A stretch of 64,000 bases of DNA, taken from NCBI RefSeq assembly GCF_022045235.1, contig NW_027266271.1, positions 5,394,001 to 5,458,000 of the forward strand, given 5' to 3'. Below, piece after piece: positions 17,163 through 59,373 of this stretch. The DNA comes from Haliotis cracherodii (Eukaryota). Every line of letters begins with the position of its first letter. The stretch's first letter is position 1. The position numbers were made by a program, and so were the translations under genes. The notes beneath the pieces were generated by a model, which ran no database searches, was not told the origin of the DNA, and worked only from the letters and a program-made list of their open reading frames with translations.

Positions 17163-17163
<1 letters not shown>

Positions 17164-35100: not shown

Positions 35101-37365
35101 ACTGTAACATATATACGTATAATCTGTCATTTGCAAAAACAAATAACATAAATAAATGCATTTATCTACATGGAATGATTGTGGGGGTAAATTTGCATTT
35201 ATATCATCAAAATATTTGATAATAAACTTTCCATCTAATAAATAGACTTAATCCTACAGGTGTCTTGAAGTACTGTTGAATGAAAATCAGGATCCATAGC
35301 TGCAGCAGTATAGTCTATGGGTTGTAAGGGAAATAACTTGTCAACATAATAATAAATATTGTTACTAAAACAAGAAGATACAACTATGATTTACATCTAT
35401 TTATGTATCAAACATGTCTTGTGGGGGGAGTCAGTATGACTTGTTGTTTGTTTGGACAGATATCTGTTATTTACTACTATGTTAAGAGCATGAGTATCAG
35501 AATTCTGTAAGAAATGATGGATCAATAAATCAACACCTGTGATGACTCAGAGCACTTACTTGTGGGACGCATTATGTAAGGAGCAGAATAATATGGGTAA
35601 ATCGTTTACTTCAAGGTATGATGACTGGTATGTATAGTGCAACTGAGCAACTGATTGCTTGATAGGTGCATGGTAGATTTTCATTTGGCAACAAATGTTC
35701 ATATATTAAACTAATAATCACGACAAAATATGTGCTAGATAAATATATTCAGTTGTAAACAACCATTTTTGAATGAAGGTGCAACAGGGTAACGCTTTAG
35801 CTTGGCTCCGTCTCTACATGTTACTAGTTGTCGCAGCACACATTGATCTGAGAAACAGACCAGAAGCGACATGTTGCACCGGTTCTTATATCATTTCAAA
35901 AGGAGAGTTATTGCCCTTTGGAACAAAATGATCACCCATTGGTGTATCATTTAATCTGTTTGGCCTTGTAGTCCGTAGTAACGGTAAATGATGAATCAAC
36001 GTGCCAAATGCAAGTTTCTCGGTATTTTTTATTGAACTTTTGATAGATAAGGATCACCATTCATAACTTGCATCCAATCAATGATATTACAATTCAGATT
36101 GTTTTTGTTTATAATTAATTATATCAAAAATTGTGTATTTTAAGAAATTAAGAAACATGAGTGTTTTCTTTTCTTCAGGTAACAAAAACTCATGATCGAG
36201 TGTGAAAAATGATAAAATCATAAAGTAAATATCGGACTGCATGCCGCTCAACGTGAACTGCCAAAAGTCAACAAAGGCTGTTTCTGGTAGTTATATGTGC
36301 CGATAAATTTGGTCGATACTTTTTTAGCTCGCAAACACACACACAAATTAGGGAAAGCATGTGTGTTTGTTAATAGGAAGACAAAAATGACCAAATATAC
36401 CATTAATTAATAATCATTATAAGGTGTAAACTTGCTCTTGACCTCCACCCAGTGATCCAATAGCTAATCTACTGGCAATACACATTACCAGTTAATCAGA
36501 AGAGTGCAACAGACTGCCCTCACTTTTCACTGGCAATTTGTCAGGCCATCTGTATGAAGTGATACAACAAGTGAAAGCTTTCCCAGATATCATAGATATC
36601 ACAGTCATTACTCCATCATAGTCAATTGTAAATTGACATAACCATCATGCAGGATATTGGAACAACTGTCACAGCTGACACGTCATGATAGTCAAATAAA
36701 CAAGAATTCAGCTATGTCAATTCCACAGCTAATGGTTCTCCATTCATTTCAGCAACCTTATCTATCTTATTTCATGTAAACATCACACTGGTGTATCTTA
36801 TTACTTTATATTTGCAAGAGCTGCCTCAAAGAGACGGCTCCCATATTCCATGTGAAATCACAATGGCTGCTTTGTACCCGCTATTCTGATTAACACGATG
36901 CAGAAGCAAAATCATTTAGACATAACAAAAACAACATATTCATAAAAACAAAATTCCTGGCAGTGAAATAGCTTAGACTACCCATCTGGCTCCATGAATG
37001 AGGAAGTACTTGCTCACAGCAGTAAAGCATATGTTGGGACTATTGTGCCACAAGGGTGCAATGCAGGACTATCACACAGACAGAAATAGTTGGGTAATGT
37101 CGAGTGATGGTCACAAGCGAGACAGTCACTGACATTAACAAAAGGCAATCATAAACAGCAGCACCGGATTACTCTTGTACAAAATATATTGTCAATAACT
37201 GAAAACATGGACAGCTTCTTCAACAGACGGCTATGATCTAAGATATGCTCTTCTCCCTTGTTGTGTAAAAGGTTAATGACACCACCAACATTCCTGGACT
37301 GCACTGTGTCCAACCCAGCTCAACTGTCCACAGGCATGCTTCCCACTGTTGGTAACATGGCTACA

Positions 37366-37820
37366 CAACACTGGCGTCAAACCAGACAGTTCACATACAC
37401 CACCCTGTCACAATACTGGCGTCAAACCAGACAGTTCACATACACCACCCTGTCACAATACTGGCATCAAACCAGACAGTTCACATACACCACCCTGTCA
37501 CAATACTGGCGTCAAACCAGACAGTTCACATACACCACCCTGTCACAATACTGGCGTCAAACCAGACAGTTCACTTACACCACCCTGTCACAATACTGGC
37601 GTCAAACCAGACAGTTCACATACACCACCCTGTCACAATACTGGCGTCAAACCAGACAGTTCACATACACCACCCTGTCACAATACTGGCGTCAAACCAG
37701 ACAGTTCACATACACCACCCTGTCACAATACTGGCGTCAAACCAGACAGTTCACATACACCACCCTGTCACAATACTGGCGTCAAACCAGACAGTTCACA
37801 TACACCACCCTGTCACAATA
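37366..37820. repeat. Minisatellite, near-perfect 45-bp unit (CAATACTGGCGTCAAACCAGACAGTTCACATACACCACCCTGTCA), ~10 copies
   Basis: Direct 45-bp periodicity with very few substitutions. Confidence 0.97.
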
Positions 37821-38392
37821 CTACTACCACAGTTAAAATACACCACTTTGTAGAAATACTACTACCACACAGTGAAAAATACACCACCCTGTAGAAATAC
37901 TACCAGTCAGTTAACATATACCACCCTGTCACAATACTACTACCACAGTTAAAATACACCACTCTGTAGAAATACTACTACCACACAGTGAAAAATACAC
38001 CACCCTGTAGAAATACTACCAGTCAGTTAACATATACCACCCTGTCACAAAACTATTACCACAGTTAAAATACACCACTCTGTAGAAATACTACTACCAC
38101 ACAGTGAAAAATACACCACCCTGTAGAAATACTACCAGTCAGTTAACATATACCACCCTGTCACAATACCTCTACCACACTATGAAAAATACACCACCCT
38201 GTAGAAATACTACTACCACAGAGTGACAAATACACCACCCTGTAGAAATACTACTACCACACAGTGAAAAATACACCAGCCTCTAGAAATACTACCAGTC
38301 AGTTAACATATACCACCCTGTCACAATACTACTACCAGTCAGTTAACATACACCACCCTGTAGAAATACTACTACCACACAGTTAACATATG
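37821..38392. repeat. Related ~38-41-bp unit array with three-unit higher-order structure
   Basis: Units share TACACCACCCTGT with the 45-mer. An A-B-C order (..CAGTTAAAA / CAGTGAAAAA / CAGTCAGTTAACA..) repeats about three times. Confidence 0.85.
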
Positions 38393-38400
38393 TACATTAC

Positions 38401-38461
38401 CTTGTAGTAATGCCACAAGTAGACACAAGTTCAATATACTTTGTAATATTCCTTTCAACAT
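38401..38461 (-). CDS. Candidate signal-peptide-coding exon (MLKGILQSILNLCLLVALLQ, phase-1 donor) of an unidentified secreted or membrane protein
   Basis: AAC-ATG start context with an in-frame TAG upstream; basic n-region and Leu-rich h-region; donor AAG|GTAATG at 38400; acceptor CTTCTGTTCTTCAG just upstream (~38484). No homology or transcript evidence. Confidence 0.35.
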
Positions 38462-39378
38462 GTTGAGGATTACCAGCCATCTTCTGAAGAACAGAAGTAT
38501 CTTATCTTCCCATTTCAAAGTGTTTTTCTAACAGAACAGCCAGTTTGAAACAGAATAGATTATATGCAATGGGAGTGTGTCCTTTGTTATAGAATAAGTT
38601 ATGCAGCCAGTTCATGGGTGTGCAGGATCTCGAGGACCCAGTCAGCAAGACAAGAGTCACTTCCTGCTTGTGTTACCTATGGTTATGTGGAGCTTTTCCC
38701 CAAAGTGTGTCCCTGTAGACTCCAATGCCTGTATGGGCTACATGACAAAAGGGCCTACATTCCTTATCTTATCCAGTTGAATGCATTGTGCAGATATCAT
38801 CTCAAAGTCAGCTTTGTCTGCCAGAGAACTTCAATGCACCAATATGACTTGAGAGATGCCATTCTGGGATTCCTATTACAACTCTTTTCTGCTCTCCATT
38901 TTTCTTTTCCTGGCGCAAGCAGGATGCTACCTCTCCAGTGTTAAACTGTTACAACAAGACAAGGAACCAAGTAATCACTTCACAGTCTGTTATGCAAATG
39001 TGAATGTTAAACCCAGCCAAAGTGTTCTCCATATTTGGCAAAGTCTTTGAGACAATTTCATTGATTATAATAAAATCACAAATTGTGTTTTTATATGACA
39101 CACTGCTGTATTACTATAGCATAGGAAGATGAAGCGATTGTTAACTCTATCCTTCTTAGTAGGTTCTGACCATATTTCCTGTCTAATATAATCACTGTCA
39201 TTTTCATCCAGTTACCAACATTCCCATTAGGATCATGCATGACTAGGAGCTCACCGTATGGAGTACAGATCTGCAGATAACAAACACATATATATATCGC
39301 CTTCAAAGATCTAAAAAATAGTTTAGGCAACACTATCAACAGTCTCTTGTTGGCATTTCACTAAGAAAATTGATTGAT

Positions 39379-39445
39379 GAGAATAACTCTAAGTTTGCAT
39401 ATACATATATCTATATATATATATGCAAACTTAAGAGTTATTCTC
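39379..39445. repeat. Near-perfect palindrome with (TA)-rich centre
   Basis: GAGAATAACTCT-AAGTTTGCATATA pairs with TATATGCAAACTTAAGAGTTATTCTC. Confidence 0.85.
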
Positions 39446-40126
39446 TATATATATTCACATATATATAAACACTGCCGTTTTGTGTCGCCTATGACAACGT
39501 TAAAAGTTTTCATTACACCTGAAAAGCCGTTCAGCGGCAAAAGATCTTGTGTGCATGATGGAGTTTTGACAAGCACTATAATTTATATATATATTTCTTT
39601 CTCTGCCAGTACATTAAAGTTTCAACTTCTTATCCTTTCATTATGTATAAGCACTAATGAAAGCTGTTAGTGTTGTATCTGTAACATGCGACATGGCATC
39701 TGTACATTATTTCTTATTTCGAGGGATGTCTTGTCACACGATACATATCTTGATACAGAAGACATGATATGATACATATCTCAATACTGACCATACAACA
39801 TTTTGTGCGGAAAACCTAGTCATTTGACTTAGAAAAGAGTCAAGCGACTCACTCACAGGGTTGAAGAAGGACAACTGACCAAAAACCATCAAAATGACAT
39901 TGAGTCAAGTCAGCTATTCTGTATGAGAAAATAATAAAGAACAAGCAAGTCTCCTGTACTGTATCATGACAGGCAACAAGTAAAAACTGGTCAGTCTTGT
40001 TATCAAGCCGGTTTCATATCCGAAAAACTACCAAGAAAGTTAGGACTTAAAAAAATAGTTTAAATTTGTACTTACTTACTGATATTTGTATGAGATCAAC
40101 AAAGACAATCAATATGGGATTAAATG

Positions 40127-40765
40127 CATCTCCCCAAGGCAAGAGAGTTAACTGACTTTAAAAGTCCAGTTTCCACTCTTGCCGTACTAGGCTGGTATTA
40201 AGGAGTTACATTTTGGCTGGACTAAGGAGTCTATGCATAGTCCTATCAAAATCGTGCAACGAAATCGAAATCCAGTTCGGCAGATTTCGGTCGATTGCAG
40301 GATTTGCAAAACATGTGCACAGCCAACTCGTTGTCAGCAGATATTTTCCACGATACAATACCTGATACCCCTAATTTAGTCTTGATTAACATTTAACCCA
40401 TCTTCCCGAGGCAAGAGAGTTAACTGACTTTAAAAGTCCAGTTTCCACACTTGCCAAACTAGGCTGGAATTACTGGGCTCGATCTTAGCGCCACCAATGG
40501 CTATTACCAGTTATGTCCCTTCTTATCCTCTCCTATGGACCAATCAGATTCCGCCTGTCTTATCACTTGCATTTGCTCCACACAAAATGGTGGCGCCTGG
40601 TCAGGACGATCTGATCGATAATCAATATCTATATTGTGATAAAACAGGTCTTACATCGCGAAATGCATCAAAAACGTTGGCACCTTGATTACAAACTTAA
40701 AAAAGATTTGGAAAATATCTGCTGACAACCAGCTGGCGGTGCACATGCTTTGCAAATCCCGCAAT
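40127..40765. mobile_element. Cassette with interleaved direct and inverted repeats (A-B-A'-B inverted); non-autonomous element of uncertain family
   Basis: 74-bp direct repeat at 40127-40200 / 40399-40472 and ~57-bp inverted repeat at 40294-40350 / 40709-40765. Confidence 0.55.
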
Positions 40766-40774
40766 GGAAGATGG

Positions 40775-41533
40775 TGTGACCTACTCTATCGCATACTCTC
40801 TTCTGTGTGACCTACTCAAGGATAAACTCTCTTCTGTGTTACCTATTCAAGGATAAACTCTCTTCTGTGTGACCTACTCAAGGATAAACTCTCTTCTGTG
40901 TGACCTACTCAAGGATAAACTCTCTTCTGTGTGACCTACTCAAGGATAAACTCTCTTCTGTGTGACCTACTCAAGGATATACTCTCTTCTGCGTGACCTA
41001 CTCAAGGATATTGTCTCTTCTGTGTGACCTACTCTAGGATATACTCTCTTCTGTATGACCTACTCTAGGAATAAACTCTCTTCTGTGTGACCTACTCAAG
41101 GATAGTCTCTTCTGTGTGACCTACTCAAGGATATACTCTCTTCTGTGTGACCTACTCAAGGATATACTCTCTTCTGTGTGACCTACTCTAGGACTGTACT
41201 CTCTTCTGTGTGACCTACTCTAGGATATAGTCTCTTCTGTGTAACCTACTCTAGGATATAGTCTCTTCTGTGTGACCTACTCTAGGATAAAGTCTCTTCT
41301 GTGTGACCTTCTCAAGGATATACTCTCTTCTGTATGACCTACTCTAGGAATATTCTCTCTTCTGTGTGACCTATCCTGGGATATAGTCTCTTCTGTATGA
41401 CCTACTCAAGGATATACTCTCTTTTGTGTGACCTACTCAAGGATATACTCTCTTCTGTGTGACCTACTCAAGGATATACTCTCTTCTGTGTGACCTACTC
41501 AAGGATATAGTCTCTTCTGTGTGACCTACTCTA
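40775..41533. repeat. Minisatellite, ~31-bp unit (GTGTGACCTACTCAAGGATAAACTCTCTTCT), ~24 copies
   Basis: Direct periodicity with 29-32-bp variants. Confidence 0.96.
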
Positions 41534-42331
41534 TCAGATACAATTTCCTCTGCCTTACTCCACTTGGCCCAACACAACCCATTTTGCTGCCTCACTTTCT
41601 ACCTGTCAAGAATAAGTTCTGATTAGAAAAGAAACCCATGGCAAATTACATTGTCAACAATGAGTTTGAAGAAAACTATGAGAAACAAAGAAACTGGCAG
41701 CCATTTTGAAGTGAAGGTAAACAAAACAAGCCTGGCGAGGGAGCCGGACAAACATGGCCGCCTGCCCCAAGCTCCCTCCTACATTCACTGGTACACACAG
41801 GCAACCTGAGTAATTGGTAAAGCAATCAAACTTAGCAACCCCACAGGTGATGACAAATAGCTTTGTAAAATTTGCACATGATGATACATAGCCATTAATA
41901 TGCTTATCAATTAGGAGATAAACCTACTGTGTTTTGAAATTTGATGTAGTCCCACTGTAAAGCAGATACCTCTTTATTTTAATTTTCTGTGTTTTCTGAG
42001 TCCTAGTCTTTCAAATCCTCTTCTGCCAAATCCTTATGATGGTGGTTGATGGAGATGGCAATGAATATCGATCAGAAAAAGTTTTGTTGACAACTTGTTG
42101 TCATGAATAAAGTTTTTTCAAAAAGTCTTTATAATGTTATATTTTACTTTCATAATTGGTTGTTTCAATGAGGAAATAGCTTAAATTGTTCCAATTCTGG
42201 TCACCATAGAACATTTCCTAAACAGTTTCATAAACATTTCATCTGTATGCATCTATAATCTTTTAACGTTTATCATCGAAGCAGTCAGGGTTGCTGCCTA
42301 GCCAACGCCCAAAACATCCGATATCAAACTA

Positions 42332-42430
42332 CCGTATTTCCTCTATTTGACGCTATGACGTCTATTAATATAGCGAGAGCCTGTGACTCGGTGTGTAATA
42401 GAGGCCCAGTGTGTAATAGAGGAAATATAG
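42332..42430. mobile_element. ~100-bp pogo/Tc2-like MITE relic
   Basis: TA|CCGTATTTCCTCTATT pairs with AATAGAGGAAATAT; GTGTAATAGAGG is repeated subterminally. Confidence 0.5.
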
Positions 42431-42936
42431 ATACGTTCTACAGTTCATAAGGAGTGATCGATAGGCAGCCATTTTCTATGAATCAATATGTAGGCTATCT
42501 ATGCATTCATACGCACATTTTTTGTGAAAAGGCTTAATATATCTTAAAGGGGTTTCCGTAGCAAAAAGGAAACCAATCAGAATCAAGAATTCATCAATGT
42601 CATGGTAGAATCATGGATATACATTGAGAGATAGTGAGCTGCTAGCTAGGAGTAAGCTCTAAGGGGATTTTTCTCTCAACAAAGGTGTCAGTGTCACTAT
42701 GTCAACAATGAAGTTCCTTGATTCCAATTCGACACCAGGATCTGCATTCTAAACTGAAGGGTGATGACAAATGACACATACTTTACTGTTACACACATAT
42801 CAATTGATCTGATCAAAGCAATGATAAAACCACAACTTTTTAGGACATTAAGGTGCCCCATCAAATCCTATATTTTCTATCTATGAGCACATCCTTCACA
42901 GCTGGGGTCATGTGTGTTGTGTGTCTGTCCTGAACA

Positions 42937-43005
42937 GTGAGTGTGTGAGTGAGTTGGGGTTAATGCTGCAGTGAACAGTATTCTAGAGTTATCACTGTGT
43001 GTCAG
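42937..43005 (-). mobile_element. Degenerate SINE 3' tail
   Basis: GTGAGTGAGTT..TTAATGCTGCA..CAGTATTCTAG..TATCAC resembles a (GAGT)n-tailed SINE end related to the 31.9-kb copy. Confidence 0.35.
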
Positions 43006-43633
43006 CTTCATGTTGGGGGAAAGGCCAAAGTGATGCAGGTCTTCAACATTTATCAGATCGGTAAATGGGTGTGGTTCTGACAAGCTTATCCTAAACAGCT
43101 GGGCTGCATGACTTATTACTAGTCAATACCTCTATTCTACCCAGCAGTGAAACACTTTCTGTCTCCTTGACAAGTGTTCTCAGTGTTCGATACACTCACC
43201 ACTTCATCCAGACAGAGAGATTACCAAGATGCTATTTACCGATCAAAGATGAATTTAATGGTTGTCATAAGCACAGGCATGAAGTAGCCTCAACCGTGAG
43301 TCTGTCAGTCACCATGTGGTGAATTAGCTGATATGCCAGGACTCATCAATGTCTACCTTTATATTGACAAAGAGAAATGTCTGATTTAGCAACTATCTAG
43401 CATACTGCCGGTGGCTGAAACCACTGATAGTGTGAAGTACTCTCCAATGAGTCTGGGGGTGGAAGCACACAGTCGTCATTTAGTACACTATCATCTGTTT
43501 ACCTTCAAGCCACTTGACTAGTGTTGATTCTTGGAACAACCACAGCCCATGTACAATTCCAAGGAATGTTTATAGAAATAAGGAAGTAAGTCCTCTTTTT
43601 AATCCATAAAATATCAACATCTAATTATATCTT

Positions 43634-44373
43634 AACAAGATACAAGTTAGCAGGGCTCACAAATACACCCGACTTCGACTCCACTCCAACATATTTCTAA
43701 GTTCAAAACATGAAAAAAGCAATATTTCTCAGAAAATCTGCTTATTAAAATCAAATCATCCTATTGGTATAGAAACAGTACCCCCAATACATGAAGTAGT
43801 TTTCTAGTTATAGATCGCAGAAATGTTTCAGCAAAAAAATTCTAAGTAAAACAATGAAAAAATGAAAAAGGGTGGATTTTTTTAAAGAAATCAAAAAATG
43901 GAAAACAAAATTCGCACTGCAACTCTCCTCGTGGTATAGAAACTGTAACCAAAATGGAGAGCATCCATTAAGTAGTTTTCAACTCATAGGTTGCCCAAAT
44001 GAAGAAGTAAATAATTTTTATAAGTTCACAAAATGAAACACATCCTATTTTTTCAGAAAATACTCATATCAAAATCAATCTTTGCAGTGCACCTCTTCTG
44101 CTAGTAAGGAACTGTTTCCTTAATTGGAAAAGAATCCACAAAGAAGATTCAAGTTAGAGGTCGCACAAATGTTTCAGTTAAAAAAATGGGAAAAAAATGT
44201 ATTTTTTCAGAAAAGCCAAATATTGAAATGAAACTTTGGACTGCACCTCTCCTATAGGTATATTAAGTGTTCACCAAGTTTGAAAAGAATCTATTGAGTA
44301 GTTTTCAGGTTATAGGAAACACACAAAAATGTACTCAGAAGGACAAACAGATGGACTGAATTCCTTGGTATAA
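43634..44373 (-). mobile_element. Degenerate HINE (DINE-1/pearl-like) with about four internal core repeats
   Basis: AACAAGA start; recurring ..TCAGAAAA..GGTATAGAAAC..AGTAGTTTTC..TTATAG cores; GGACAAACAGATGGAC and GGTATAA at the right end. Confidence 0.6.
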
Positions 44374-44461
44374 CTATATAACACCACCCCTTAAAATGCT
44401 TACAAGAACAGTAAACTACGATTATAACAAACTCAAATGGACCTCTTATTTTAGTAAGTTA

Positions 44462-46346
44462 CTTACTTACTTACTAACTTTGGAGATTTAACGTGCGCTT
44501 TCCGACTGATGCGTATTTCGCACACGGGCCCGGCCAGGCCATTTAATGTGTTTCCGAAAGGGGCGAGGGTGGTCTGTGCAACCCAAGAGGGGGCTTTAGG
44601 GGTTGCTTATATAGAATTTGGGAATTTTGAGATTTGGAATAGATGCCGATGGGGTTGGGGAGGAGAACTAAGGGAGCTGGGTATGGTGGATGATTGTTTG
44701 TTTTTGTGATTTTGATTTGGTAGGTTATTATGGTTTTAGATGCGTTTTATCAGTTCCGTTTTTATTAAGAATACGCCTAAGGCCTTGAAGTTTTCTAGTT
44801 TATTTTGTGGGTTTAGTATTGCTTCTAGAGTGAGAGCCTTGTTTAGATTGAGGGTGGTTTGTAATGCGGTTCGATGTGTTAGGTAGTGTGTGCAGTGGAT
44901 GAGTGCGTGTTCTGGGGTTTCTGGTTGTTTGCAGTGTGGGCAGTTACCTGTAGTGTGTTTTTTAAAAATTTTTAGGTGGTTATTTAGGTTGGTGTGTCCT
45001 GTTTGGAGTTTAGTGATTACTCTGTCGATTTTTTTGGATGGATGGAGAATTTTTGGTTTGGTTAGTGGTTTGCTGAGCACTCTTTTGATTTGGCTATTTG
45101 AGTTTAGATATAGGTTATGCCATTTTTTTGTGATTTTTTGTTTGTTTACACTTTTAATTTCTGATTTTGAGATGGGTAAGTTTAAGCTTATTTCTGGGAT
45201 TTTGAGGGATAGTTTAGCTGCTTTATCGGCGTTTTCATTACCGTATATTCCTACGTGGGCGGGTATCCACAAGAAGGTTATTTGTTTGCCTGCTTTTGTT
45301 AGGTCGTTGGAGCTTTTAAGTATTTGATTTATTAATTTAGGTCGGTTTTTGGTATTTTTGTTTTGGAGGGCTTGTAGTCCACTTAGGGAGTCGGTAAGTA
45401 TTAGGATTTTTTGGTTGTTTTTGGATTCTTGATTGTGGAGGGCTGAGGCCATGCCCATTAGTTCGGCCGTGAATATTGATTGGTTATTTGGGAGTCGGAA
45501 GGATTGTGTGGTTTTAGTTGGTTGTGTGGTATGGACTCCGAAACCCGTGTGTTTGGAGGTCGGATCTGAGGATCCGTCCGTGTAAATGTGACACCAATTT
45601 GGCCAATTTTTGTGTATGTATGCTAGTGTGGTAGTTTTAGCTATGTTTGGTCGGTTTGTTTATTTATTTGGCTAGCTAGTGTTGTGTCTATTTTGGGTAT
45701 TTTAAGTTTAGGGGTGAAGATATTTGATTGTTTGCAGTTTTGTTTAAGATTTTTAATTTGGTGTTCATTTAGGTAGTTTGTTATTCTTTGGGATATTGGG
45801 GTAAGTAAGGGGTGTTTACGAGCTAGAGCTTGGTTTTTAGGGCTGATGTTTTGGTTTATTAAGTTTTGGATGAGAGGGTTTGATTGGGACGCGGCCCAGA
45901 AATTTAAGCTTAGCTGTTCCCTGCGTAGACTTAGTGGCATTTCTCCCGTTAAGGCCTGAAGTGAGGTGTAGGAGGTGCCATGTTGGGTGCGTGTAATGAG
46001 TTTGAGAGCCTGATATTGTATTGAGTCAAGTTTTTTAGATAGAGAGTTGTTTAGGGTGTTGTATATGGCGCAGCCGTAGTCTAGTTTTGATCTAATTAGG
46101 GATATGTAGAGAGAGAGGAGAGTATCTTTGGAGGCTCCCCAGTTAGAGCCAGTTAGGCATCTTAGGGTGTTTAGGTCTTTACTGCATTTAGTTGTTAGGT
46201 TTTGGATGTGAGCATCCCAGGTGAGATGTTCATCGAAAATAAGTCCTAAGAATTTGGTTTGTTTTTGAAATTTGATTGTTTGATTGTTTAGCTGGAGGAT
46301 TGGGGAGGCGGGTTTCATGTTTTTATGTTTGAATACTATTCCTGTA
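44462..46346 (-). mobile_element. 5'-truncated non-LTR retrotransposon of the I group (RNase H-containing), relatively young
   Basis: 12-bp TSD TTTAGTAAGTTA at 44450-44461 and 46347-46358; (AGTA)n 3' tail; ~270-bp 3' UTR; coding region intact except for one frameshift. Confidence 0.93.
44736..46346 (-). pseudogene. LINE ORF2 3' part: RT C-terminus/thumb, RNase H and CCHC zinc knuckle
   Basis: KFLGLIFDEHLTWDAHI and LIRSKLDYG (RT thumb). IYTDGS, TAEL, LTDS, WIPAH and GNENADKAAK (RNase H). CPHC..ETPEHALIHC (zinc knuckle). One frameshift near 45650 joins ORFs 45641-46390 and 44736-45458. Confidence 0.92.
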
Positions 46347-47301
46347 TTTAGTAAGTTATATCTGTTGTTTGTTATACATATTTCAACCATCAGACATCTT
46401 TTATCAAGTTATGTGACATCATGTTACTCAATAAATAACAAAAGTGTACACGACATCTACAGAATATATGTGTTACTATTGTTAATTGAGGGTGTCATTT
46501 GAGGACAAGGTGTCAGTACTTAAGAGTATATCAATTGCCTTCAATTGTTTATAGACGCTTTGAACAGCAGCGCTTGGCCGTGGATCTTTTGACTGGCAGA
46601 TTGGTGACACGTGAGGAGCTCAGCTCAGGGATTAACAGTTCATTGTACACTTAAACACTTTCTTTGACAAGTACACATGGGACCACATGGTGAGTTCGCT
46701 ATATCTGTTATTTTGCTATGAGCGTGTTCGTTATATCAATCAACTTTATATCCATCAGTTCGTTGTAAGCGTGTTCGTTCAAAACATAGTTTACTGTACC
46801 AGCAAAAACAGAAACATGCCCATCATGGCCATTTCCAGCAGACCCCAGAAATCATTAACATGCCACCACACATTTCCAGTGGGATACCTTTACCTTCAGC
46901 TTTTCTGGTCTTGGCCCATCCAAAGGAAGAGTTTCACCTACAGTAAATCCTTTTAGAGTCTAAGGCTAATGGTATGACATGCCTGAGATGTCCCAGCACC
47001 AGATTGTTTCCGAAACAATATGTGGTGAGCAAATTCATTATCCCACTAGCCTTGACTAACAAATTAATACACTTATAAATTACTAATCATTTAGCCCCAC
47101 TAGCCTTCACAAGAACATTAATCCACTTCCAAACCAAAGTGAAATGACAGCATGTTCAACTCCCCTCATGATGACACCCCATGTGGCAGAACCTGTGAGT
47201 GCAGTGAATGTCCTTCTTCTTCTGACTAATGCAATCTGTCACCAAGGCTGAAGATGAACCCAAGGCTATAGGCATCAGCTGGTCTCACACAGCTACAACA
47301 C

Positions 47302-47357
47302 ACTTACCTGAAACACAAAGAAAATCCATTTAAAAGATAAGACAGACATCCCAGACA
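47302..47357 (-). promoter_or_regulatory. Candidate recursive splice site (3' splice site immediately followed by a consensus 5' splice site)
   Basis: The minus strand reads TTTTAAATGGATTTTCTTTGTGTTTCAG|GTAAGT, junction 47308/47307, with no AG in the ~47 nt upstream. Confidence 0.45.
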
Positions 47358-47438
47358 CTTAATAAGTATACAAAGACAACATGCACATTGATATTCCTAT
47401 AATAAAATGTCAAGAGGCACCGTCTCTGAGACCATATC

Positions 47439-48180
47439 CCAAAGACAGCCTTACTGGCAACTACACTGTAGACCATTCCAAAGACAGCCTTATTGGCAAC
47501 TACACTGTAGACCATTCCAAGGACAGCCTTCCTGGCAACTACACTGTAAACCATCCCAAAGACAGCCTTACTGGCAACTACACTGTAGACCATTCCAAAG
47601 ACAGCCTTATTGGCAACTACACTGTAGACCATTCCAAGGACAGCCTTCCTGGCAACTACACTGTAGACCATTCCAAAGACAGCCTTACTGGCAACTACAC
47701 TGTAGACCATCCCAAAGACAGCCTTACTGGCAACTTAACTGTAGACCATCACAAGCACAGCCTTACTGGTAACTACACTGTAGACCATTCCAAGGACAGC
47801 CTTACCAGCAACTACACTGTAAACCATCCCAAAGACAGCCTTACTGGCAACTACACTGTAGACCATTCCAAGGACAGCCTTCCTGGCAACTACACTGTAA
47901 ACCATCCCAAAGACAGCCTTACTGGCAACTACACTGTAGACCATTCCAAAGACAGCCTTATTGGCAACTACACTGTAGACCATTCCAAGGACAGCCTTCC
48001 TGGCAACTACACTGTAGACCATTCCAAAGACAGCCTTACTGGCAACTACACTGTAGACCATCCCAAAGACAGCCTTACTGGCAACTTAACTGTAGACCAT
48101 CACAAGCACAGCCTTACTGGTAACTACACTGTAGACCATTCCAAGGACAGCCTTACCAGCAACTACACTGTAGACTATTC
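47439..48180. repeat. Minisatellite, 39-bp unit (CCAAAGACAGCCTTACTGGCAACTACACTGTAGACCATT), 19 copies with a 9-unit-offset block duplication
   Basis: The variant order of units 3-10 recurs in units 12-19, visible in the repeat translation. Confidence 0.97.
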
Positions 48181-49328
48181 ACACACTTCACTGGCATTAG
48201 GTCACTTTTATTAACTGTCATTTTGCTGAATTAAAAGTATTACATAGATTACTTTTTTTCTTAACATCTGCTATTTCTGATTTAATTAGTGAAGCTGTAG
48301 TAGTTGTATGAGCAGCAGCACGTTTCCATCATTTATGAACGAATGTTCATCTTAAATTCTGTTCTCAATACTTCTCCTTCGCCATCGCAACAGGACCAGA
48401 ACAGACAATTGCTAGACTTCAGCCCACACCTCCAGGGCTTATAATCATCAACATAAACACAGTGTTAAAGTGACATCTCACTGTACAGGTAATGGATGAC
48501 CCATCAAATACCCCTCCCTCCAGGTACAAAGGTGACATCTAAAGTCAAAGGCTAATTACATACAAATAGACCCCAGACATCGTCTCCCCTGACTGCTGCT
48601 CTAATTCAATAACACTGGGAGATCTGTGATTTGTATACAGGCCATTGGATGTTTTAACATCACTGTCTTACTGAACACAAGATTAAATACGTGATCAATT
48701 GGCAAGTGTGCAAGCCTGGATATCTGTTGTATCCTGTTGTGTGGAGGGAATTGGTTTCAGCTCAAGTCCAATACATGATTATCAACATGACATGGGGTAT
48801 CTGCATCAAGTTAGATAGTTACAACATGATATGCATATACAGATTTAATTAAGTTATGGTCATATGGAAATTACACTTATGGAAGAGTTAACAGGGAGTT
48901 TACTGATAACAACTGTTCTCCCAATCTCACAACTTGTATAAGTAAGATGAGTTGGTTTAACACTTGTCAGGAGCTACCAGTGTCCACCTCTAGCTGCAAA
49001 CCTGGTGTCAGTTCTCAGCAACATCAGAGGCCAGGAAGTTCACATTGAAATCATGCATCTTTCTCAGGTACTTTCAAGTACCCTTAAGGTACGTCTTTGA
49101 AGGGATGTTTCGTACCATTTGTGTACAAGCTAAATTTGGAACAAAGAATGATATCTCTTTATCAATATTGATTTCCATACTTAATTAGTAGACGTCTTGA
49201 TAATGTCTTCTACATTGATATGAACCCTATTTGAATAGTCCCTTCTGCTCCGCACAACCCACCATTCTCCACATGTAAAGTACAGTATCATCATAGGTCT
49301 ATACACCTTAGCATAATGAATTCAGTGT

Positions 49329-49353
49329 ACACACACACACACACACACACACA
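49329..49353. repeat. (AC)n microsatellite
   Basis: About 12 perfect dinucleotide units. Confidence 0.95.
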
Positions 49354-50776
49354 TTTCAGCTGGCTGCCTGACTCAAGGGGATGCTGAATGCAGAGCAACC
49401 TGATCAGAACTATTCTGCTGCCTCCATCACCGACTTGACCAATGAGAAATAGGATGCTTCAACAGACATTTGTCCTCTCACTGAAATGAAGATGGAATCC
49501 ATTTCATCAAAGTAAAGGACTCCTCTTGCAGTAACAATAGATTTGAACAGAACTGAAAATGCCATCTAAATATACCAGAACAAGGGATATAGGTGCCAAG
49601 CCACAAAACAGAATTTGTCCCTCTCAATGCATACCATAAATGACATTAACAGCTGTCTTAGAGTAATGCTAAAGTTTATGTACAATTATAACTTCTGTAC
49701 AATTTGCTGGTCTAATATCAAGACACTAAAATTGGTTTGCATCTTAATGCTTTGTCAACTCTTGCATTTGAAAATTTTATCTCAAAACCATGAAGTTTAA
49801 CCAACCTGTTTCATCAATAGTTTCTTAGAAATTGGGTAGGAATAATAAAAAAAACATCTTCTGATATGAACTGTTCAACAAAAACATAAGTGCCAGAGAT
49901 AAAATTGTTAGGTTCAGTGTGACCCCTGCAAGCTGAATAAAGCATGAACTCAGGGAAATAGAACTGCAAATTAGTCTGACATTTAACTAATGTGAGTTGC
50001 AAACGTAATTCTGAATCAAGATGGACATCAAAACATCCACACACTTTATCCAAGCACAAACTGTAGAACTGTAGATGATAACATGTCACATATAAACAAA
50101 AGGTCTCTAGTTGTATACCCAAGATGGCAAATCGTCTACACATTTTATTTGGCTAAGACATCTTGTTAAATACTACTTTAATCCCACTTGACCTAGGAGA
50201 ACTGTTTCACTCATATATCAGCATTACCCAGAATGGTAACCGTCAAATGATGAAGATCATTTGCATAAATCTGTTGTTCCTGAAGCACAATAGGTATTTA
50301 CGGTCAATGTACAAGCAATCAATACATGCTCCAGCAATGATAGGGTTCAACATGCAGATTTTTTTCAGTTCATGTAAAGCCGCAGTTCTTTACAGCTCCG
50401 ATATGTTGTAATGTACACCTAGTTTCTGTGTCATAGTCAAACAGTCCAATTTGGGCTTGTACTAAGATGTATAGACACTCATTATTCTTGACTCTGATTC
50501 AATGTCCGTCTACAAGAAGAGAGATGGAAAACATTCATTACAAAAATATACTAAGCTGATCACAAAGTTGACTTTCACAAATTCTTAACAGTTGAATATT
50601 ACCATCTAACATTCCGCAATCTCCTTCAAATGACTGTGAATCTCTATATCTCCCATGTGTAGTTAATAAATCAACCAGATAAACATACAGAGCTTTAATT
50701 ATTCTGTGTTTTTATCTTACAACAGGCATGACTAGGCTATGCATGCCTCCATCAGTGTACTGTAAGGAATAGATAG

Positions 50777-53088
50777 GTCTGGCACAACCCTGCGTGGCAG
50801 ATATCATAGTCTGGCACAACCCCGTCCTAGCACTATGGCTGACATCATATTCTGGCACAACCCCGTCCTAGCACTATGGTTGACATCATATTCTGGCACA
50901 AGCCTGTCCTAGAACTATGGCTGACATCATAGTCTGGCACAACCCTGTCCTAGCACTGTGGCTGACATCATAGTCTGGCACAGCCCCGTCCTAGCACTAT
51001 GGCTGACATCATAGTCTGGCACAACCCCGTCCTAGCACTATGGCAGACATCATATTCTGGCACAAGCCTGTCCTAGAACTATGGCTGACATCATAGTCTG
51101 GCACAACCCTGTCCTAGCACTGTGGCTGACATCATAGTCTGGCACAGCCCCGTCCTAGCACTATGGCTGACATCATAGTCTGGCACAACCCCGTCCTAGC
51201 AAAGTGGCTGACATCATAGTCTGGCACAACCACGTCCTAGCACTGTGGCAGACATCATAGTCTGGCACAACCCTGTCCTAGCACTGTGGCAGACATCATA
51301 GTCTGGCACAACCCTGTCCTAGCACTGTGGCAGACATCATAGTCTGGCACAACCCCGTCCTAGCACTGTGGCAGACATCATAGTCTGGATCCATCCCTTC
51401 CTGACACTGTGGGCAGAGATCATAGCCTGGAACCAACCCGTCCTGGCACTCCGGCTGACGTGATAGTCGGGAACCAACCTGTTCTGGCACTGTAGGCTGA
51501 CATCATAGTCTGGCACAACCCTGTCCTGGCACTGTGGGCAGACATCATAGTCTGGAACCACCCTGTCCTGGCACTGTGGGCAGACATCATAGTCTGGAAC
51601 CACCCTGTCCTGGTACTGTGGGCAGACATCATAATCTGGAACCACCCTGTCCTGGCACTGTGGGCAGACATCATAATCTGGAACCACCCTGTCCTGGCAC
51701 TGTGGGCAGACATCAATAGTCTGGAACCACCCTGTCCTGGCACTGTGGGCAGACATCATAATCTGGAACCATCCTGTTCTGGCACTGTGGGCAGACATCA
51801 TAGTCTGGAACCACCCTGTCCTGGCACTGTGGGCGTACATCATAGTCTGGACCCACCCTGTCCTGGCACTGTGGGCAGACATCATAGTCTGGAACCATCC
51901 TGTTCTGGTACTGTGGGCAGACATCATAGTCTGGAACCACCCTGTCCTGGCACTGTGGGCAGACATCATAATCTGGAACCATCCTGTTCTGGTACTGTGG
52001 GCAGACATCATAATCTGGAACCATCCTGTTCTGGCACTGTGGGCAGACATCATAATCTGGAACCATCCTGTTCTGGCACTGTGGGCAGACATCATAATCT
52101 GGAACCAACCTGTCCTGGCACTGTGGGCAGACATCATAGTCTGGAACCATCCTGTCCTGGCACTGTGGGCAGACATCATAATCTAGAACCATCCTGTTCT
52201 GGTACTGTGGGCAGACATCATAGTCTGGAACCATCCTGTTCTGGTACTGTGGGCAGACATCATAGTCTGGAACCACCCTGTCCTGGTACTGTGGGCAGAC
52301 ATCATAGTCTGGAACCATCCTGTCCTGGCACTGTGGGCAGACATCATAATCTGGAACCAACCTGTCCTGGCACTGTGGGCAGACATCATAGTCTGGAACC
52401 AACCTGTTCTGGTACTGTGGGCAGACATCATAGCCTGGCACAACCCTGTCTTTGCACTGTGGGCAGACATCATAGTCTGGAACCAACCTGTTCTGGTACT
52501 GTGGGCAGACATCATAGCCTGGCACAACCCTGTCCTGGCACTGTGGGCAGACATCATAGTCTGGAACCAACCGGTTCTGGTACTGTGGGCAGACATCATA
52601 GTCTGGAACCACCCTGTCCTGGCACTGTGGGCAGACATCATAGTCTGGACCCACCCTGTCCTGGCACTGTGGGCCGACATCATAATCTGGAACCATCCTG
52701 TTCTGGTACTGTGGGCAGACATCATAGTCTGGAACCATCCTGTTCTGGTACTGTGGGCAGACATCATAGTCTGGAACCACCCTGTCCTGGCACTGTGGGC
52801 AGACATCATAGTCTGGACCCACCCTGTCCTGGCACTGTGGGCAGACATCATAATCTGGAACCATCCTGTTCTGGTACTGTGGGCAGACATCATAGTCTGG
52901 AACCATCCTGTTCTGGTACTGTGGGCAGACATCATAGTCTGGAACCACCCTGTCCTGGCACTGTGGGTAGACATCATAGTCTGGAACCACCCTGTCCTGG
53001 CACTGTGGGCAGACATCATAGTCTGGAACCAACCTGTTCTGGTACTGTGGGCAGACATCATAGCCTGGCACAACCCTGTCTTTGCACT
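50777..53088. repeat. Bipartite minisatellite: 41-bp units (to ~51390) switching to related 42-bp units (AGTCTGGAACCACCCTGTCCTGGCACTGTGGGCAGACATCAT)
   Basis: Direct periodicity. The 1-bp gain (TGG to TGGG) and the GCAC-to-AACC change occur across a few degenerate junction units at ~51390-51510. Confidence 0.97.
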
Positions 53089-53181
53089 AAACCATCTGCC
53101 AATGTCAGCTACACCTAGAGGAATCGGGAGCACTTGATGCTGGTTAACTCCACATATCATGATACCTGGTACCATAAACAT

Positions 53182-53546
53182 TAGGGGTGAAATAATACAT
53201 CAGTGCACTTGCATGTGAGTTTTCATTCAACAAAAAGATACATGATACTTTTTTTCTGTATCGATATAAGATGATACACTTGTTGAAATAAAAAATGTAT
53301 TACTTATTTATTGATACCCACCCTAGCGCTTTAGTCAACAAAATATTGCAAAAATCTGTTGCGATTAGCTTTTCAAGTTCACAACTAAAATAGCCACGAC
53401 GAACATGAATTTACAGTGAGCTTTTCCTTTCGAACTGGCTCTCAAATATTTCTTAGTCAAGAAGTTTCCATGTGATTTGACATAAATATGCGTATCATGA
53501 TATGTAGCATACTGTATCGTAACCTTGCTGTATTGTTTCACCCCAA
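53182..53546. mobile_element. hAT-type MITE
   Basis: TIRs TAGGGGTGAAATAATAC / GTATTGTTTCACCCCAA, 8-bp TSD ATAAACAT / ATAAAGAT (7/8), and GATAC/GTATC subterminal motifs. Confidence 0.75.
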
Positions 53547-53558
53547 ATAAAGATTATA

Positions 53559-53900
53559 AACAAGAGTCATCACGAGATAACATATCCCCCCAAATGGTAC
53601 CAGATCACCAATAGAATGATTTGTATAGCAAGTTCCATCTAGAAATATTTAATGGTTTTGGAGTTCTGCTCTGGAAACGTGCTTTACCCTTGCTTTCAGT
53701 CCACCCTGACATCATGAAAACAAACACAAAAACAAAAGTGAAAATCCCAAATCATCAAATGGCCCCAGTTCACCACTAGAATGATCTTTATAGCAAATTT
53801 CAACAAGAAATAGTCATTCAATGGTTTAGGAGTTCTGCTCTGGAATGGAAAGAGGAGAGTTGATGGACGGTCAGACAGGTGGATAACAATGTTACCACAA
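53559..53900 (-). mobile_element. Short degenerate HINE with two core repeats
   Basis: AACAAGAG..ATATCCCCC start; two copies of TAGAATGAT..TATAGCAA.TT..AATGGTTT.GGAGTTCTGCTCTGGAA; GATGGACGGTCAGACAG near the end. Confidence 0.6.
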
Positions 53901-54386
53901 ACAACAAAATCGATGTTCCTGTGATCATCATGCTAAACATATTGATTTGAGAATACTCTGTTTGTGACTTGCTTTCGACTCACTTGCATCCTCACATTTC
54001 TTGACATTTCATACTTTTCTGAAATGAGGGTCTCACTATCTGTTCCAGTGTAATACAAGCTACATACTCCCCAGGACATTAAAAGGAAACTGATACCAGA
54101 AATAGAACACTGCCACAAATATCTATTAAAAGCAGCCAATCTGCGATCAGGCAATAACCAGGGCAACAAAGCAGTGCAAGATGCCTGTTTAAGGGATGAT
54201 ACTGAATTATTACTCTTGGTAAACAGTTACATTGTTACAAGTTCAAAACGATCTGCGATAATAATGTTCCTTAATGAAACTGACAATATTTTGCAATGTT
54301 TAAGTAACATATTGTAAGTAAAAGCTCAGTTCCTCTGTATATTTGTAACACAATCCATCATGCAAGAGAGCACCTGATTATTGAAA

Positions 54387-55344
54387 TATGCTCTCCACTA
54401 TATGTAGGGCATCATGAAATTTAATTGTTACAAGACACAAAATTGTTAATGATGCCCTGAACAGTCCAGGATCAATCAATCAGAAACTAAACTTTATGAA
54501 ATCGAGTCCCAACAGTCACTTGCTGTTCACTTGGTGCGCCAGTCCACCAGAGTTTAAGTTACTGACCAGAAGATTAGAATTCATCTGCACTCAGCCAATC
54601 TGCATTATCAGCGACCACATGCTGTAGTACCAGTAACAAATAGACACATTCTATCAAGACGTCATTGTCGTTTAGAGCATACAAAACTGGGGGAAATCGC
54701 CAATGGTCTCATGGAGTGGAATGTTTTCAGAAGAATCCATGATTCACTCTGGACCTTCAGGATAAGCATGGACATGGCTGGAGGCGTCTTGACGTACATC
54801 ATATGAACGGCAATAGATTTGGGGGGTAAGGGTTACTGGACAGCAAGTGCTGTTGACACTTAGTCGTGCTGCATCATGCTGGTCCATGTTCGTGCCCATG
54901 GTGCCCGGATTGTAACTGACTACCCCAAGCAGTAAAACATCACCAGAATGCAATAGCCAGCCAGGAGTCCTGACCTTTCCCAATTAGAGCAGGTCTGGGA
55001 TATGATAGGAGACGTGTTAGCCAATGTCAGTGGCCTCTTGGTATATTGGCTGAACTGGACCAGGTGCTGCAAGATGAGTGGAAACTGGGAGATTAATTTG
55101 GACATGCCACAAATGAATGTTTGGTCAGTCATGGGGCCATGAGCCATCATTGATCAAGTCATCTTAATTTTTTTTACTACACACCCGTTGTCTTTTTCAG
55201 TTGTTTGTACCCTTACAATACACGTCAACATGTTATGTCATGATACACCTAGTCTTTCCTTTTAATTATCCATCACTCAATGCCTTTTTGTATTTCTGTA
55301 ATCATCTGTTATCTTCGAAAATCCCCTACTTTTGTTGGAGCATA
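54387..55344 (+). mobile_element. Heavily decayed, internally deleted Tc1-family element
   Basis: Broken frames give MFSEES..FTL and AHGARIVTDY..NITRMQ*PARSPDLSQLEQVWDMIG, a relic of the Tc1 WPxxSPDLxPIE motif. Degenerate TIR pair TATGCTC..GTAGGG / CCCTAC..GAGCATA. Confidence 0.7.
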
Positions 55345-55389
55345 CATTACATGTGAAAATAATTCCTTCCGCTCATTGTTATTTGCCAA

Positions 55390-56585
55390 ACCAACTTAAC
55401 CCATGCACAGACCACCCCAACTCAACCCATGCACCTACCATCCCAACTCAACCCATGCACAGACCACCCCAATTCAACCCATGCACCTACCATCCCAACT
55501 CAACCCATGCACCTACCATCCCAACTCAACCCATGCACCTACCATCCCAACTTAACCCATGCACAGACCACCCCAACTCAACCCATGCACCTACCATCCC
55601 AACTCAACCCATGCACCTACCATCCCAACTCAACCCATGCACAGACCACCCCAATTCAACCCATGCACCCACCATCCCAACTCAACCCATGCACCTACCA
55701 TCCCAACTCAACCCATGCACCTACCATCCCAACTCAACCCATGCACCTACCATCCCAACTCAACCCATGCACCTACCATCCCAACTCAACCCATGCACCT
55801 ACCATCCCAACTCAACCCATGCACCAACCAACTCAACCCATGCACCGGCCACCCCAACGCAACCCATGTACCGACCAACTCAACCCTTGAACCTACCACC
55901 TCCACTCAACCCATGAACCTCCCACCTCAACTCAACCCATGCTCCAACTCAACTCAACCCATGCACCGACCACCCCAACGCAACCCATGCACAGACCACC
56001 CTAACTCAACCCATGCACCTACCATCCCAACTCAACCCATGCACCTACCATTCCAACTCAACCCATGCTCCAACTCAACTCAACCCATGCACCGACCAAC
56101 TCAACCCATGCACCGACCAACTCAACCCATGCACCTACCGACTCAACCCATGAACCTCCCACCTCAACTCAACCCATGCACCGACCAACTCAACCCATGC
56201 ACCGACCAACTCAACCCATGCACCTACCAACTCAACCCTTGAACCTCCCACCTCAACTCAACCCATGCACCATGCACCTATCAGCGACCACATGCTGTAC
56301 TACCATTAACAAATAGACACATTCTATCAAGACGTCATTGTCGTTTAGAGCATACAAAACTGGGGGAAATCGCTAACTCAACCCATGCACCTACCAACTC
56401 AACCCATGAACCTCCCACCTCAACTCAACCCATGCACCGACCAACTCAACCCATGCACCTACCAACTCAACCCATGCACCTACCAACTCAACCCATGAAC
56501 CTCCCACCTCAACTCAACCCATGCACCTACCAACTCAACCCATGCACCGACCAACTCAACCAATGCACCTTCCACCTCAACCCAA
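55390..56585. repeat. C/A-rich minisatellite, 26-bp unit (AACTCAACCCATGCACCTACCATCCC) grading into 21-bp units, interrupted at 56279-56373
   Basis: Periodic CAACCCATG core. Confidence 0.95.
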
Positions 56586-59160
56586 ACAATGGAAGTGGTT
56601 GGCATGTCTATCAGGATTTACCTGGTTTATATACTTTCAAGCCCACAGGATCTCAGCAGTTTATTTTGGGTGTCCAAGGCATAAACATGGGACACCCAAT
56701 ATAGAAGTATAACCATAGGAAACTGGCTAATATTATATGTCAACATGTATTTTCCCCCAATTGGAGACCTGTTCAATGCCAATAAAAGAGGTGACTGCTT
56801 GATGTCAGTTGGAGTCACCTGAAACTTCATGTCAGTCAAACACTGATTAGAGCGGTGACTTTCTGTGCCTGCCCTGCACTCTTTGTCCCTTACCTCCTTA
56901 CCCAGCTACAGGGACCTACACAACCTGAAGGAGTGCTTTAGAAATTAAACCAAACAGGACTTGAGGTGTGTCAAGGGAACAATAAACAGGTCGACCTATG
57001 GTCAAACAATAGCTTGCCATAACCTAGATGCTGGGTCAAGATCTCTTCAGGTGAAAGCTAGCCCAAATACCTTGCATGGTTGTACATACTTCAAGCAAAA
57101 CTTGGTCAGTCTTTTCCTTGCAAGATGACATTGTCAATATGAACATTACCATGTTTTTGATTATGATCATGAAGTGTGCTGTTACAACTGACAGTGTGGT
57201 CCTTACACATACCAAACAGTATAGAACATTGGAAACTGACGCTAGAAACACCTGCTACAACAAAACTAAGCCCATGAAACGTCTAGTCTCCTAGTATTTG
57301 CCTAGATATGAGAGTGAGTGTATGTCATGTGTGCTAGGTGCAGGCCAGCATGCCGGTGTCTCTACAATGATAGCCACATATAATCTATGTTCACCACACT
57401 CAAGGAACTGATTAATCAGCCATTGTTACGGAAAAATACACCTCAGGCTACTGTCATACCTATTTGCATTTCTCCATTTTCATTAATACATTGATAAATC
57501 AAAATATGTATCAACAAAAAAACATCTTGAATGTCCAGGTATGAATTCATCAATCTGTATCTGACAGATGTGGAGGTAAACACAGGAGTAAACAATATAC
57601 TGTAAACTAGTTATAATGAACTTAAAGGGACCACTAATAAACACATATGCATGAACACATATATCTTAAGCACATAAATTAATTTTCTCTTAATTAATTA
57701 TCAACAACAAAAATGTGTTTTAAACTATATTAGTGCCAACGTTGCAATTTCAAGTTCACAGCCTTGATGATAATACAGCCAGGGTAATTAACAGTAGTAG
57801 AAATGAACCTTTTGTAAACTAGTTTAGTACAAAGATACATACAAGGGGAAACATGACTTCTACCAGTGTTCAGTGTTGAAAACAGCACAAAACCCTTTCC
57901 ATAACCATAAGACATCTCTGCCCAAAAGCAGAGTCCTCTGTACCATTCCGAATATTATGTGTGTTTTTGAATTACTATCAAATGATGATGATACCAGGTG
58001 TTGCAAATAGGTGGTGACCATCACAAACACATGCAAAGGCAAGACAACTGTTCAAATGAATAAACACAGGACTATATGGCACAAGACAAAATAAGGATTT
58101 GCATCACACATCATTTTTGTCAGTGATGTGGCAAATTTGAAAAGGTCCTCCATGTCTACCATAAAACCTTTTGAAAGCTTTATTAAGGCCTTGAATGTTG
58201 TAACCCTAATGGAACAAAAATGGAGCAAGAGTCGTATGACTCTCTTGAAATCTACGAAGAAGGAGCATGTTCAACTGTTCCTCAAATGTAGACAACAAAG
58301 GCTGGAGCTGCTGGAAGTAGACTATTGGAAAGTCAAAGTTAAACAATTGCTTAGTGTGAAAATACTAAAGCGCTTACGACAAGCAAGACATGCCCTGCAA
58401 ATCTTGTCTGTCATGATAAGATGGACGAGGTGTGTTTATGAATTTGATAGTCTGTGTAGAACCCCCACTGCCAGTATGGAGGAAATAGGCCACACACTTG
58501 CTACCTTAGCATCTACTACAACATATTGAATGAGTGCTTTTACACTAACTACAAATTGAGCAAGACACAACGATTAGAGAAGTTTGCTAAGACTGCAATG
58601 CAGAGATATCATATTGCCTCACAAAGAGACAGAGTGTTTTGTCAGGATCCCCCAGCAGCCAGTGCAGAACCTAATGACTCCCTCTCTATGCCAAGTTCTA
58701 CCAACATCTCAGTCCTGTCATGGAAAGCACTCTCCTTGTTTTCCCCATGCTCTGGATCTATGTTCTGTCTCATCTGGTTTTCTACCCTACACCATTCCTA
58801 CAGCCAGCTGGAATTTCCAACATTTGGTCATGCATCAGGAAATTAAAAAGATTGGTGTTTTGGTTGGTTTTAAACCATTCCCAAACCTATCCCCTGTATT
58901 TTCAAACAATAAGCTTCAACCTTCTAGATAAAGTTAATATGTTTTTAAAGATCTGGTTTAATAGAAAGTTTCAAAACAGACTGTGTACATGTTTTCTGTA
59001 CTTTGTACCATAAGACACACACCTATATATGGGATGTGGTGAATTCCTTCACAGCATGCCAGCTCTAATTTGAGCACAAAAGTATGGTAATAGTACATCA
59101 TCTTCACTGGAGGATGCTGATGTTAACTAAACTGGCATGTGCACTGCATACTAGATGACC

Positions 59161-59373
59161 ACAGACAGACAGACAGACAGACAGACACAAACCCTAGAAT
59201 ACCAGATCATCTCTCTCTCTCTCTCTGAATACACGATGACCACATACATGATGACCACACACAAACACACATACTCACTCACCCCACCCCCACCCCTACC
59301 CACCCACCCCCACCCACCCACACACACACCCACACCCACACCCACACCCACACCCACACCCACACACACACAC
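59161..59373. repeat. Compound microsatellite: (GACA)n, (CT)n, (CA)n, (CACC)n, (CACACC)n
   Basis: Read directly from the sequence. Confidence 0.9.

Follow-up and report, generated by a model that had tools for sequence, protein, structure and literature searches.

A fused splice motif on the minus strand of the abalone EGFR gene, with its junction at 47308/47307, is likely the second of three ratchet points of the fly type (constitutive), which would together remove EGFR intron 1 in four pieces; weighing the sequence of the site against its genomic setting and against other loci, we give this reading a probability of about 0.82. Positions in this report are relative to the window, that is, the whole stretch of 64,000 nucleotides that was analysed (G000:C8:5394001-5458000). 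The position, the strand and the three motifs of the intron were observed directly, and the order of events is modelled on Drosophila. During transcription, exon 1 would be spliced first to the AG at 78602; the GT regenerated there would then be re-spliced to the AG at 47308. This second join would set the AAG of exon 1 before GTAAGT and create a near-perfect donor, AAG/GTAAGT (score 8.1), which would beat the weak donor of a short cryptic exon; this stop-bearing exon would be skipped because the regenerated donor is the stronger of the two. Splicing would proceed to -2065 and from there to exon 2, and the mRNA would retain nothing of the site at 47308. A recursive splice site had been proposed here by the first-pass annotation of this DNA, and the DNA evidence, namely a long intron, the sense strand and an excess of the motif, supports that proposal.

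The host gene and its first intron

With 100 kb added on each side of the window, the open reading frames to its left proved to be those of an EGFR gene on the minus strand, and exon 2 of this gene matches a Haliotis EGFR with 100% identity, in agreement with the earlier guess of a probable mollusc. Given the mapped positions of exon 1 and exon 2 (Table 1), intron 1 therefore measures 182,941 nt and encloses the window entirely, and the site at 47308 lies on the sense strand of EGFR, 96,944 nt (53%) from the 5' end of the intron. All 22 available runs consist of assembled contigs, a kind of material in which rare forms are lost. Exon 1 is joined directly to exon 2 in four of four RNA contigs (one per run, from four studies, running on into the initial 30 bases of exon 2); thus these four runs are RNA, intron 1 is confirmed, and no part of it remains in the main mRNA. 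The long intron with a transcribed minus strand that the first-pass annotation presupposed is therefore real. None of the contigs carrying EGFR exon 1 ran from exon 1 into a ratchet point, a form that would be lost on assembly if rare, and the RNA-like runs X1, X6 and X18 gave no contig over 46912-47340 among matches crowded by a repeat at 46450-46900, a gap that carries no weight in assembled contigs. A strict exon scan of the 64-kb window returned no minus-strand exon.

Tandem repeat makes up 35% of EGFR intron 1, and its description as minisatellite-inflated therefore holds. The base composition of the window is skewed, mostly C over G and A over T on the plus strand, which corresponds to a G/T-rich EGFR sense strand, and most minisatellites follow the same skew; the main exception is the retrotransposon stretch at 44-46 kb. 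The window contains a retroelement-like open reading frame on the minus strand (44736-46408), which by its look we take to be the RT/RNase H end of a non-LTR retrotransposon, and a transposon-like one on the plus strand (10220-10739), presumably, again by its look, a fragment of a Tc1/mariner transposase. Elsewhere in the gene, the 16.7-kb EGFR intron (L003-L005, about -82000 to -69000) contains broken open reading frames that in our view resemble a Maverick/Polinton-type element (DNA polymerase B, integrase, ATPase, capsid-like), and a fragment near -57700 is presumably DIRS-like.

The fused splice motif at 47308/47307

The minus strand reads polypyrimidine-CAG/GTAAGT at the junction, exactly as first described, with a T-rich tract and with a branch-like TTTAA at 47334-47330, whose role as a branch point is a guess from the sequence. 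The preceding AG on this strand is at 47359-47358, so that the AG-free zone, first given as about 47 nt, is present with a corrected length of 48 nt; likewise, the neighbouring minisatellite was confirmed, at 121 bp instead of about 130 bp. Acceptor and donor matrices were derived from real junctions of EGFR and cpo, 24 in all, four more junctions being not placeable. On these matrices the acceptor half exceeds 21 of the 24 real EGFR/cpo acceptors, and the donor GTAAGT, taken together with the last three nucleotides of exon 1, reaches a score above the range of the 24 real donors (-0.5 to 8.0). Within the 64-kb window, AGGTAAGT occurs twice on the minus strand and never on the plus strand.

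The site lies outside all tandem arrays, and the 250 nt around it, except for a 33-nt match to a similar cpo site, are single-copy in 1.264 Mb, which bears out the earlier statement that the DNA is unique and rules out a minisatellite of splice-site copies (of the 'mirage' type). Another array in the window, a 46-bp minisatellite at 63584-64000, has a sense-strand unit with acceptor-like YYYCAG copies, and one of its variant units reads CAG/GTAAGC at 63677. The site was aligned in one contig of organism B (run X19), which spans 46921-47425 and differs at 17 of 505 bases with 29 gap letters; the 14 substitutions listed all lie outside 47247-47335, with three substitutions and the 29 gap letters unlocated and a divergence too low to give this comparison power.

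Table 1. Positions of the splice motifs, host-gene features and related loci (window-relative where no contig is named; cpo, couch potato)
Feature	Position	Strand	Basis or remark
Donor half, GTAAGT	47302..47307	-	Sequence; AG just before it at 47309-47308
Acceptor half: 48-nt AG-free zone, T-rich tract, CAG	47308..47357	-	Sequence; score 10.7
Candidate 65-nt cryptic RS-exon	47243..47307	-	Inferred; would end at weak donor TTG/GTGACA; stop in exon-1 frame
39-bp minisatellite, 19 copies	47429..48180		121 bp from the junction, on its upstream side in the sense direction
Sister site, tract-CAG/GTAAGT	78602 (L013; G000:C8:5472602)	-	Downstream donor at +46
Sister site, tract-CAG/GTGAGT	-2065 (L011; G000:C8:5391935)	-	Downstream donor at +54
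EGFR intron 1, 182,941 nt	Window 1..64000 wholly inside	-	Exon mapping and RNA contigs
EGFR exon 1, coding part	144345-144252 (L020)	-	Mapped
EGFR exon 2	Starts at -38690 (L008:951-1310)	-	Mapped
cpo/RBPMS intron 1, 147 kb, six sites	G000:C6:25837050-25983898 (L022-L037)	All sense	Spacing 15.6-26.4 kb
Ephrin gene (distal first intron 335 kb), four sites	G000:C7:13756340-14095726 (L123-L131, L042-L067)	Sense	Exon mapping
Ig/FN3 receptor, two sites	G000:C6:22605354, 22625373 (L087, L089)	Gene's strand	Upstream of first mapped exons
Same-strand motif clusters, no identified host	C7:3.06-3.14, C4:31.50-31.54, C5:17.96-18.01, C56:47.41-47.46 Mb
Further same-strand clusters	C34:3.19-3.51, C1:12.0-12.1 and 41.4-41.5, C23:10.3-10.4 Mb; also C45

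Sister sites and strand bias

In the 264 kb examined, exactly three AGs that score at least 6 run directly into a donor-like hexamer, at 78602, 47308 and -2065, and each lies in intron 1 on its sense strand; the first of them had been missed by our genome search patterns. At that threshold, three of 50 sense-strand acceptors of intron 1 run on into GTRAGT (0.022 expected) and none of 30 on the antisense strand does so, and at a score of at least 9.5 the figures become three of four (0.002 expected) and none of three, with the reservation that only two of the three sites are independent because 47308 was picked for its motif. The sense-strand excess that the first-pass annotation anticipated is therefore present locally. 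The three sites would divide intron 1 into pieces of 65,650, 31,294, 49,373 and 36,624 nt, and both sister sites have good downstream donors; the other EGFR introns examined, up to 16.7 kb long, contain no such site.

Across the genome, the pattern B7TTNCAGGTAAGT had 101 matches and its reversed control 61, a GTAACT version had 84, and a GTGAGT version had 105 with 119 for its own reversed control; because these raw counts are little above the controls (101 vs 84) or below them (105 vs 119), many of the pattern matches are background. The genome-wide enrichment that had been suggested as a check is hence barely visible in the raw count, and it is the strand clustering that speaks for it. Among the 100 GTAAGT matches listed, neighbours at most 100 kb apart form 13 same-strand pairs and no opposite-strand pair, against 0.84 pairs expected in all; one of the 13 consists of two identical 19-mers and is probably a duplication. 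The GTAACT control (81 matches after removal of three tandem copies) gave two same-strand pairs and one opposite pair within 100 kb, as did GTGAGT (100 of the 105 matches listed, 87 after tandem collapse). Four GTGAGT matches have a GTAAGT match no more than 100 kb away, in every case on the same strand, and one of them is paired with the site at 47308.

We scored eight regions (1.264 Mb), consisting of EGFR and of seven cluster regions chosen for their same-strand motif neighbours. On the motif strand 23 of 342 strong acceptors are followed by GTRAG, and on the other strand none of 229, a split that holds over acceptor thresholds from 3 to 8 (29:1 to 23:0) and that arises partly by construction, because 21 of the 23 are pattern matches in regions picked for same-strand neighbours. 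The independent finds are only two sites within the eight regions, plus one sense-strand site in 200 kb of DNA that had been held out. All 19 GTAAGT pattern matches in the eight regions passed the score, as did two of the three GTGAGT matches. Many members of the class continue as GTAAGTAC or GTAAGTG, a bias that extends past the six-base donor.

Host genes were found for four of the eight regions, and the motif is on the sense strand in all four. The array in intron 1 of couch potato/RBPMS (cpo) is the densest; no coding exon of the three mapped isoforms lies between its six sites, five of which are followed by a donor with a score of at least 2.7; as a test case, this intron is to be preferred to the EGFR site. 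The N-terminal peptide of an annotated abalone cpo isoform, P0102, is matched best, among peptides that begin with Met, 77 nt past the sixth site, where 6 of 8 residues agree, and this start, as indirect evidence, would fit the inclusion of an RS-exon. A minisatellite begins just behind the same site (G000:C6:25965314-25966900, L035), and it is the first unit of this array that the P0102 N-terminus matches. In the ephrin gene, two alternative first exons are 284 kb apart, and the proximal one is downstream of all four sites; the sites are thus intronic only for the distal isoform, because they lie between the two first exons. The PDB matches of the Ig/FN3 receptor are led by Robo, and from its domain content and the look of its exons we take it to be probably DCC/neogenin. 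For regions C7b, C4, C5 and C56 the exon finder returned no host, and the same-strand clusters without a host may mark giant introns.

Candidate cryptic exons behind the sites

The first-pass annotation spoke of a zero-length exon, a notion that is dated, as the ratchet points of the fly are followed by a cryptic exon of some 50 nt that splicing skips (PMC8605326, in the part available to us) and the abalone sites as a class appear to do likewise. As controls we used 124 pattern-matched sites on the motif strand, and we compared the downstream donor and the AG-free zone, two features that the search did not select. The best donor at +25 to +110 has a median score of 3.9 at the 23 sites and of -0.7 at the controls (Mann-Whitney p=1e-7), donors at +40-80 nt number 0.96 per site as against 0.10, and the median AG-free zone is 52 nt as against 22 nt.

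Judged by these features, the class of 23 carries what looks like the cryptic RS-exon signature of the fly, and the site at 47308 carries it weakly. Its donor at +65, which would close the candidate exon of Table 1, scores -0.9, the second weakest of the 23, below all 24 real donors and no better than the controls; alternatively, a 19-nt cryptic exon would end at TGT/GTGAGA (score 1.4). The ratchet donor, at 8.1, stands against at most 1.4 for any downstream donor within 200 nt. Behind two of the three EGFR sites the candidate exons contain a stop in the frame of exon 1.

Alternative readings

Chance is the first alternative to consider: the motif at 47308 might never be used, whether or not the intron has other, real ratchet points. 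We regard this as unlikely. The site was, as noted, picked for its motif, the controls yield 61 to 119 background matches per pattern genome-wide, and its downstream donor could belong to a control site; against these points, an acceptor of 10.7 and an AG-free zone of 48 nt surpass what the pattern demands, and the site stands in a very long first intron, on its sense strand, in the company of two independent similar sites and with segments of comparable size.

A second alternative, which we consider improbable, is that GTAAGT is the ordinary donor of a small or cryptic exon, either an alternative first exon encoding MDFLCVS, as the first-pass annotation itself had offered, or a 236-nt exon from the minisatellite, for which an acceptor at 47543 scores 4.8. 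The 22 nt from the ATG at 47329 do end in phase 1, which is the phase of exon 2, but MDFLCVS begins none of 15 EGFR cluster proteins, such a protein would be without an N-terminal leader, and the AG next upstream, with a score of -1.5, would yield a frameshifting 50-nt exon. In favour of such an exon, the EGFR model P0020 of H. asinina has an alternative start of seven residues, and among 2089 donor-like sites 47308 ranks 12-14 for a back-translated match to that start; no peptide match was convincing, and the start could not be placed. The tiny exon is disfavoured for the main mRNA because all four contigs pass from exon 1 directly into exon 2 and skip the region, and an exon of this kind would leave the sister sites and the downstream-donor peak unexplained.

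Finally, it is very improbable that 47308 is a real acceptor used above all for a poison or terminal exon that begins with GTAAGT and is seldom included, most transcripts losing the intron in one step, since the in-frame stops behind two of the three EGFR sites and the one cpo isoform model that appears to include such an exon, which would suit it, are set against a regenerated donor (8.1) far above the downstream donors (-0.9 or 1.4), where fly RS-exons are skipped when the regenerated donor is the stronger (PMC8605326, part of the text), and against the regular 16-26 kb spacing of the six cpo sites, which suits stepwise removal better.

Discussion

Several lines of evidence favour a ratchet point at 47308. 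The site is on the sense strand near the midpoint of a first intron, like the recursive sites of the fly; the local excess (three sites against 0.022 expected), the 13:0 split of neighbouring pairs, the sense orientation in four of four hosts and the downstream-donor peak point in the same direction, as do the direct join of exon 1 to exon 2 in the RNA contigs, the ratchet points of cpo and Egfr in the fly and, indirectly, the start of P0102. Counted against it are the weak downstream donor of the site itself, the low raw enrichment, the lack of a host in four of the eight regions, a splice model built on 24 junctions, and a first segment of 65.7 kb that exceeds the fly maximum of 63.6 kb in the Duff preprint.

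From its sequence, the site likely represents a known mechanism, the fly-type ratchet point, in a new phylum. It is conceivable, though we would not favour it at present, that recursive splicing with cryptic RS-exons is ancestral to protostomes (or bilaterians), the EGFR and cpo arrays of abalone and fly sharing descent while the sites themselves were renewed amid minisatellites. Fly-like arrays with a cryptic-exon signature in a gastropod, if borne out, would fill a third large branch of the bilaterians, an ancient origin would be favoured, and the vertebrates would represent a reduced case. Because cpo and Egfr are both ratchet genes in the fly, inheritance can be tested against convergence in long developmental introns. 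Such sites may also seed false alternative exons in genome annotation, and annotators should expect this.

According to the accessible part of a 2026 review (PMC13149111), the animals with documented recursive splicing are Drosophila, mouse and human, and our literature search, whose coverage stopped short of subscription journals, found no report from molluscs. For the fly, the available portion of a preprint by Duff et al. (10.1101/006163) gives 197 ratchet points, two of them in cpo, with one to six per intron and segments of 2.6-63.6 kb, and parts of PMC8605326 describe a cryptic RS-exon in Egfr. In the portion of PMC6110457 at hand, fly recursive sites occur in most introns over 40 kb, lie near midpoints and are enriched in first introns; the names Egfr, cpo, fra and Ephrin are absent from nine of its supplementary files, as far as these were covered.

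The abalone sites resemble the ratchet points of Drosophila (Ubx, kuz, Bx, luna, cpo, Egfr) in their form, (y)nCAG/GTAAGT, in their occurrence in very long and often first introns with one to six per intron, in their absence from mRNA, in having as a class a donor about 50 nt downstream, and in a ratchet donor stronger than the cryptic one; moreover, the two animals have two host genes in common, cpo and Egfr. They differ in that the EGFR segments of abalone are 31-66 kb long, against a fly mean of 18 kb that the cpo segments (16-26 kb) do match, in that 35% of the EGFR intron is tandem repeat, in the weak cryptic donor at 47308, and in that the abalone sites are known from DNA alone.

A precedent for the kind of evidence used here is that of Shepard et al. 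2009 (PMC2773006), who, in the passages available, relied likewise on the excess of the fused motif on the sense over the antisense strand, and who found the large introns of mosquito, bee, beetle and sea urchin enriched in it and not those of vertebrates; their table, as far as accessible, has 13 species with no mollusc or other spiralian among them, and sense/antisense ratios from 4 to 22. In contrast to that survey, our data are local (eight regions), and cryptic exons, with which the same passages do not deal, were tested here. Mammals have few fully suppressed sites in long introns, nine by the figure cited in PMC8605326 (seen in part), and many expressed RS-exons. With the RS-exons of vertebrates (Sibley et al. 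2015, as summarised in that paper), the abalone sites would share a two-step logic with competition between donors; unlike them, abalone has several skipped sites per intron, a pattern that looks fly-like.
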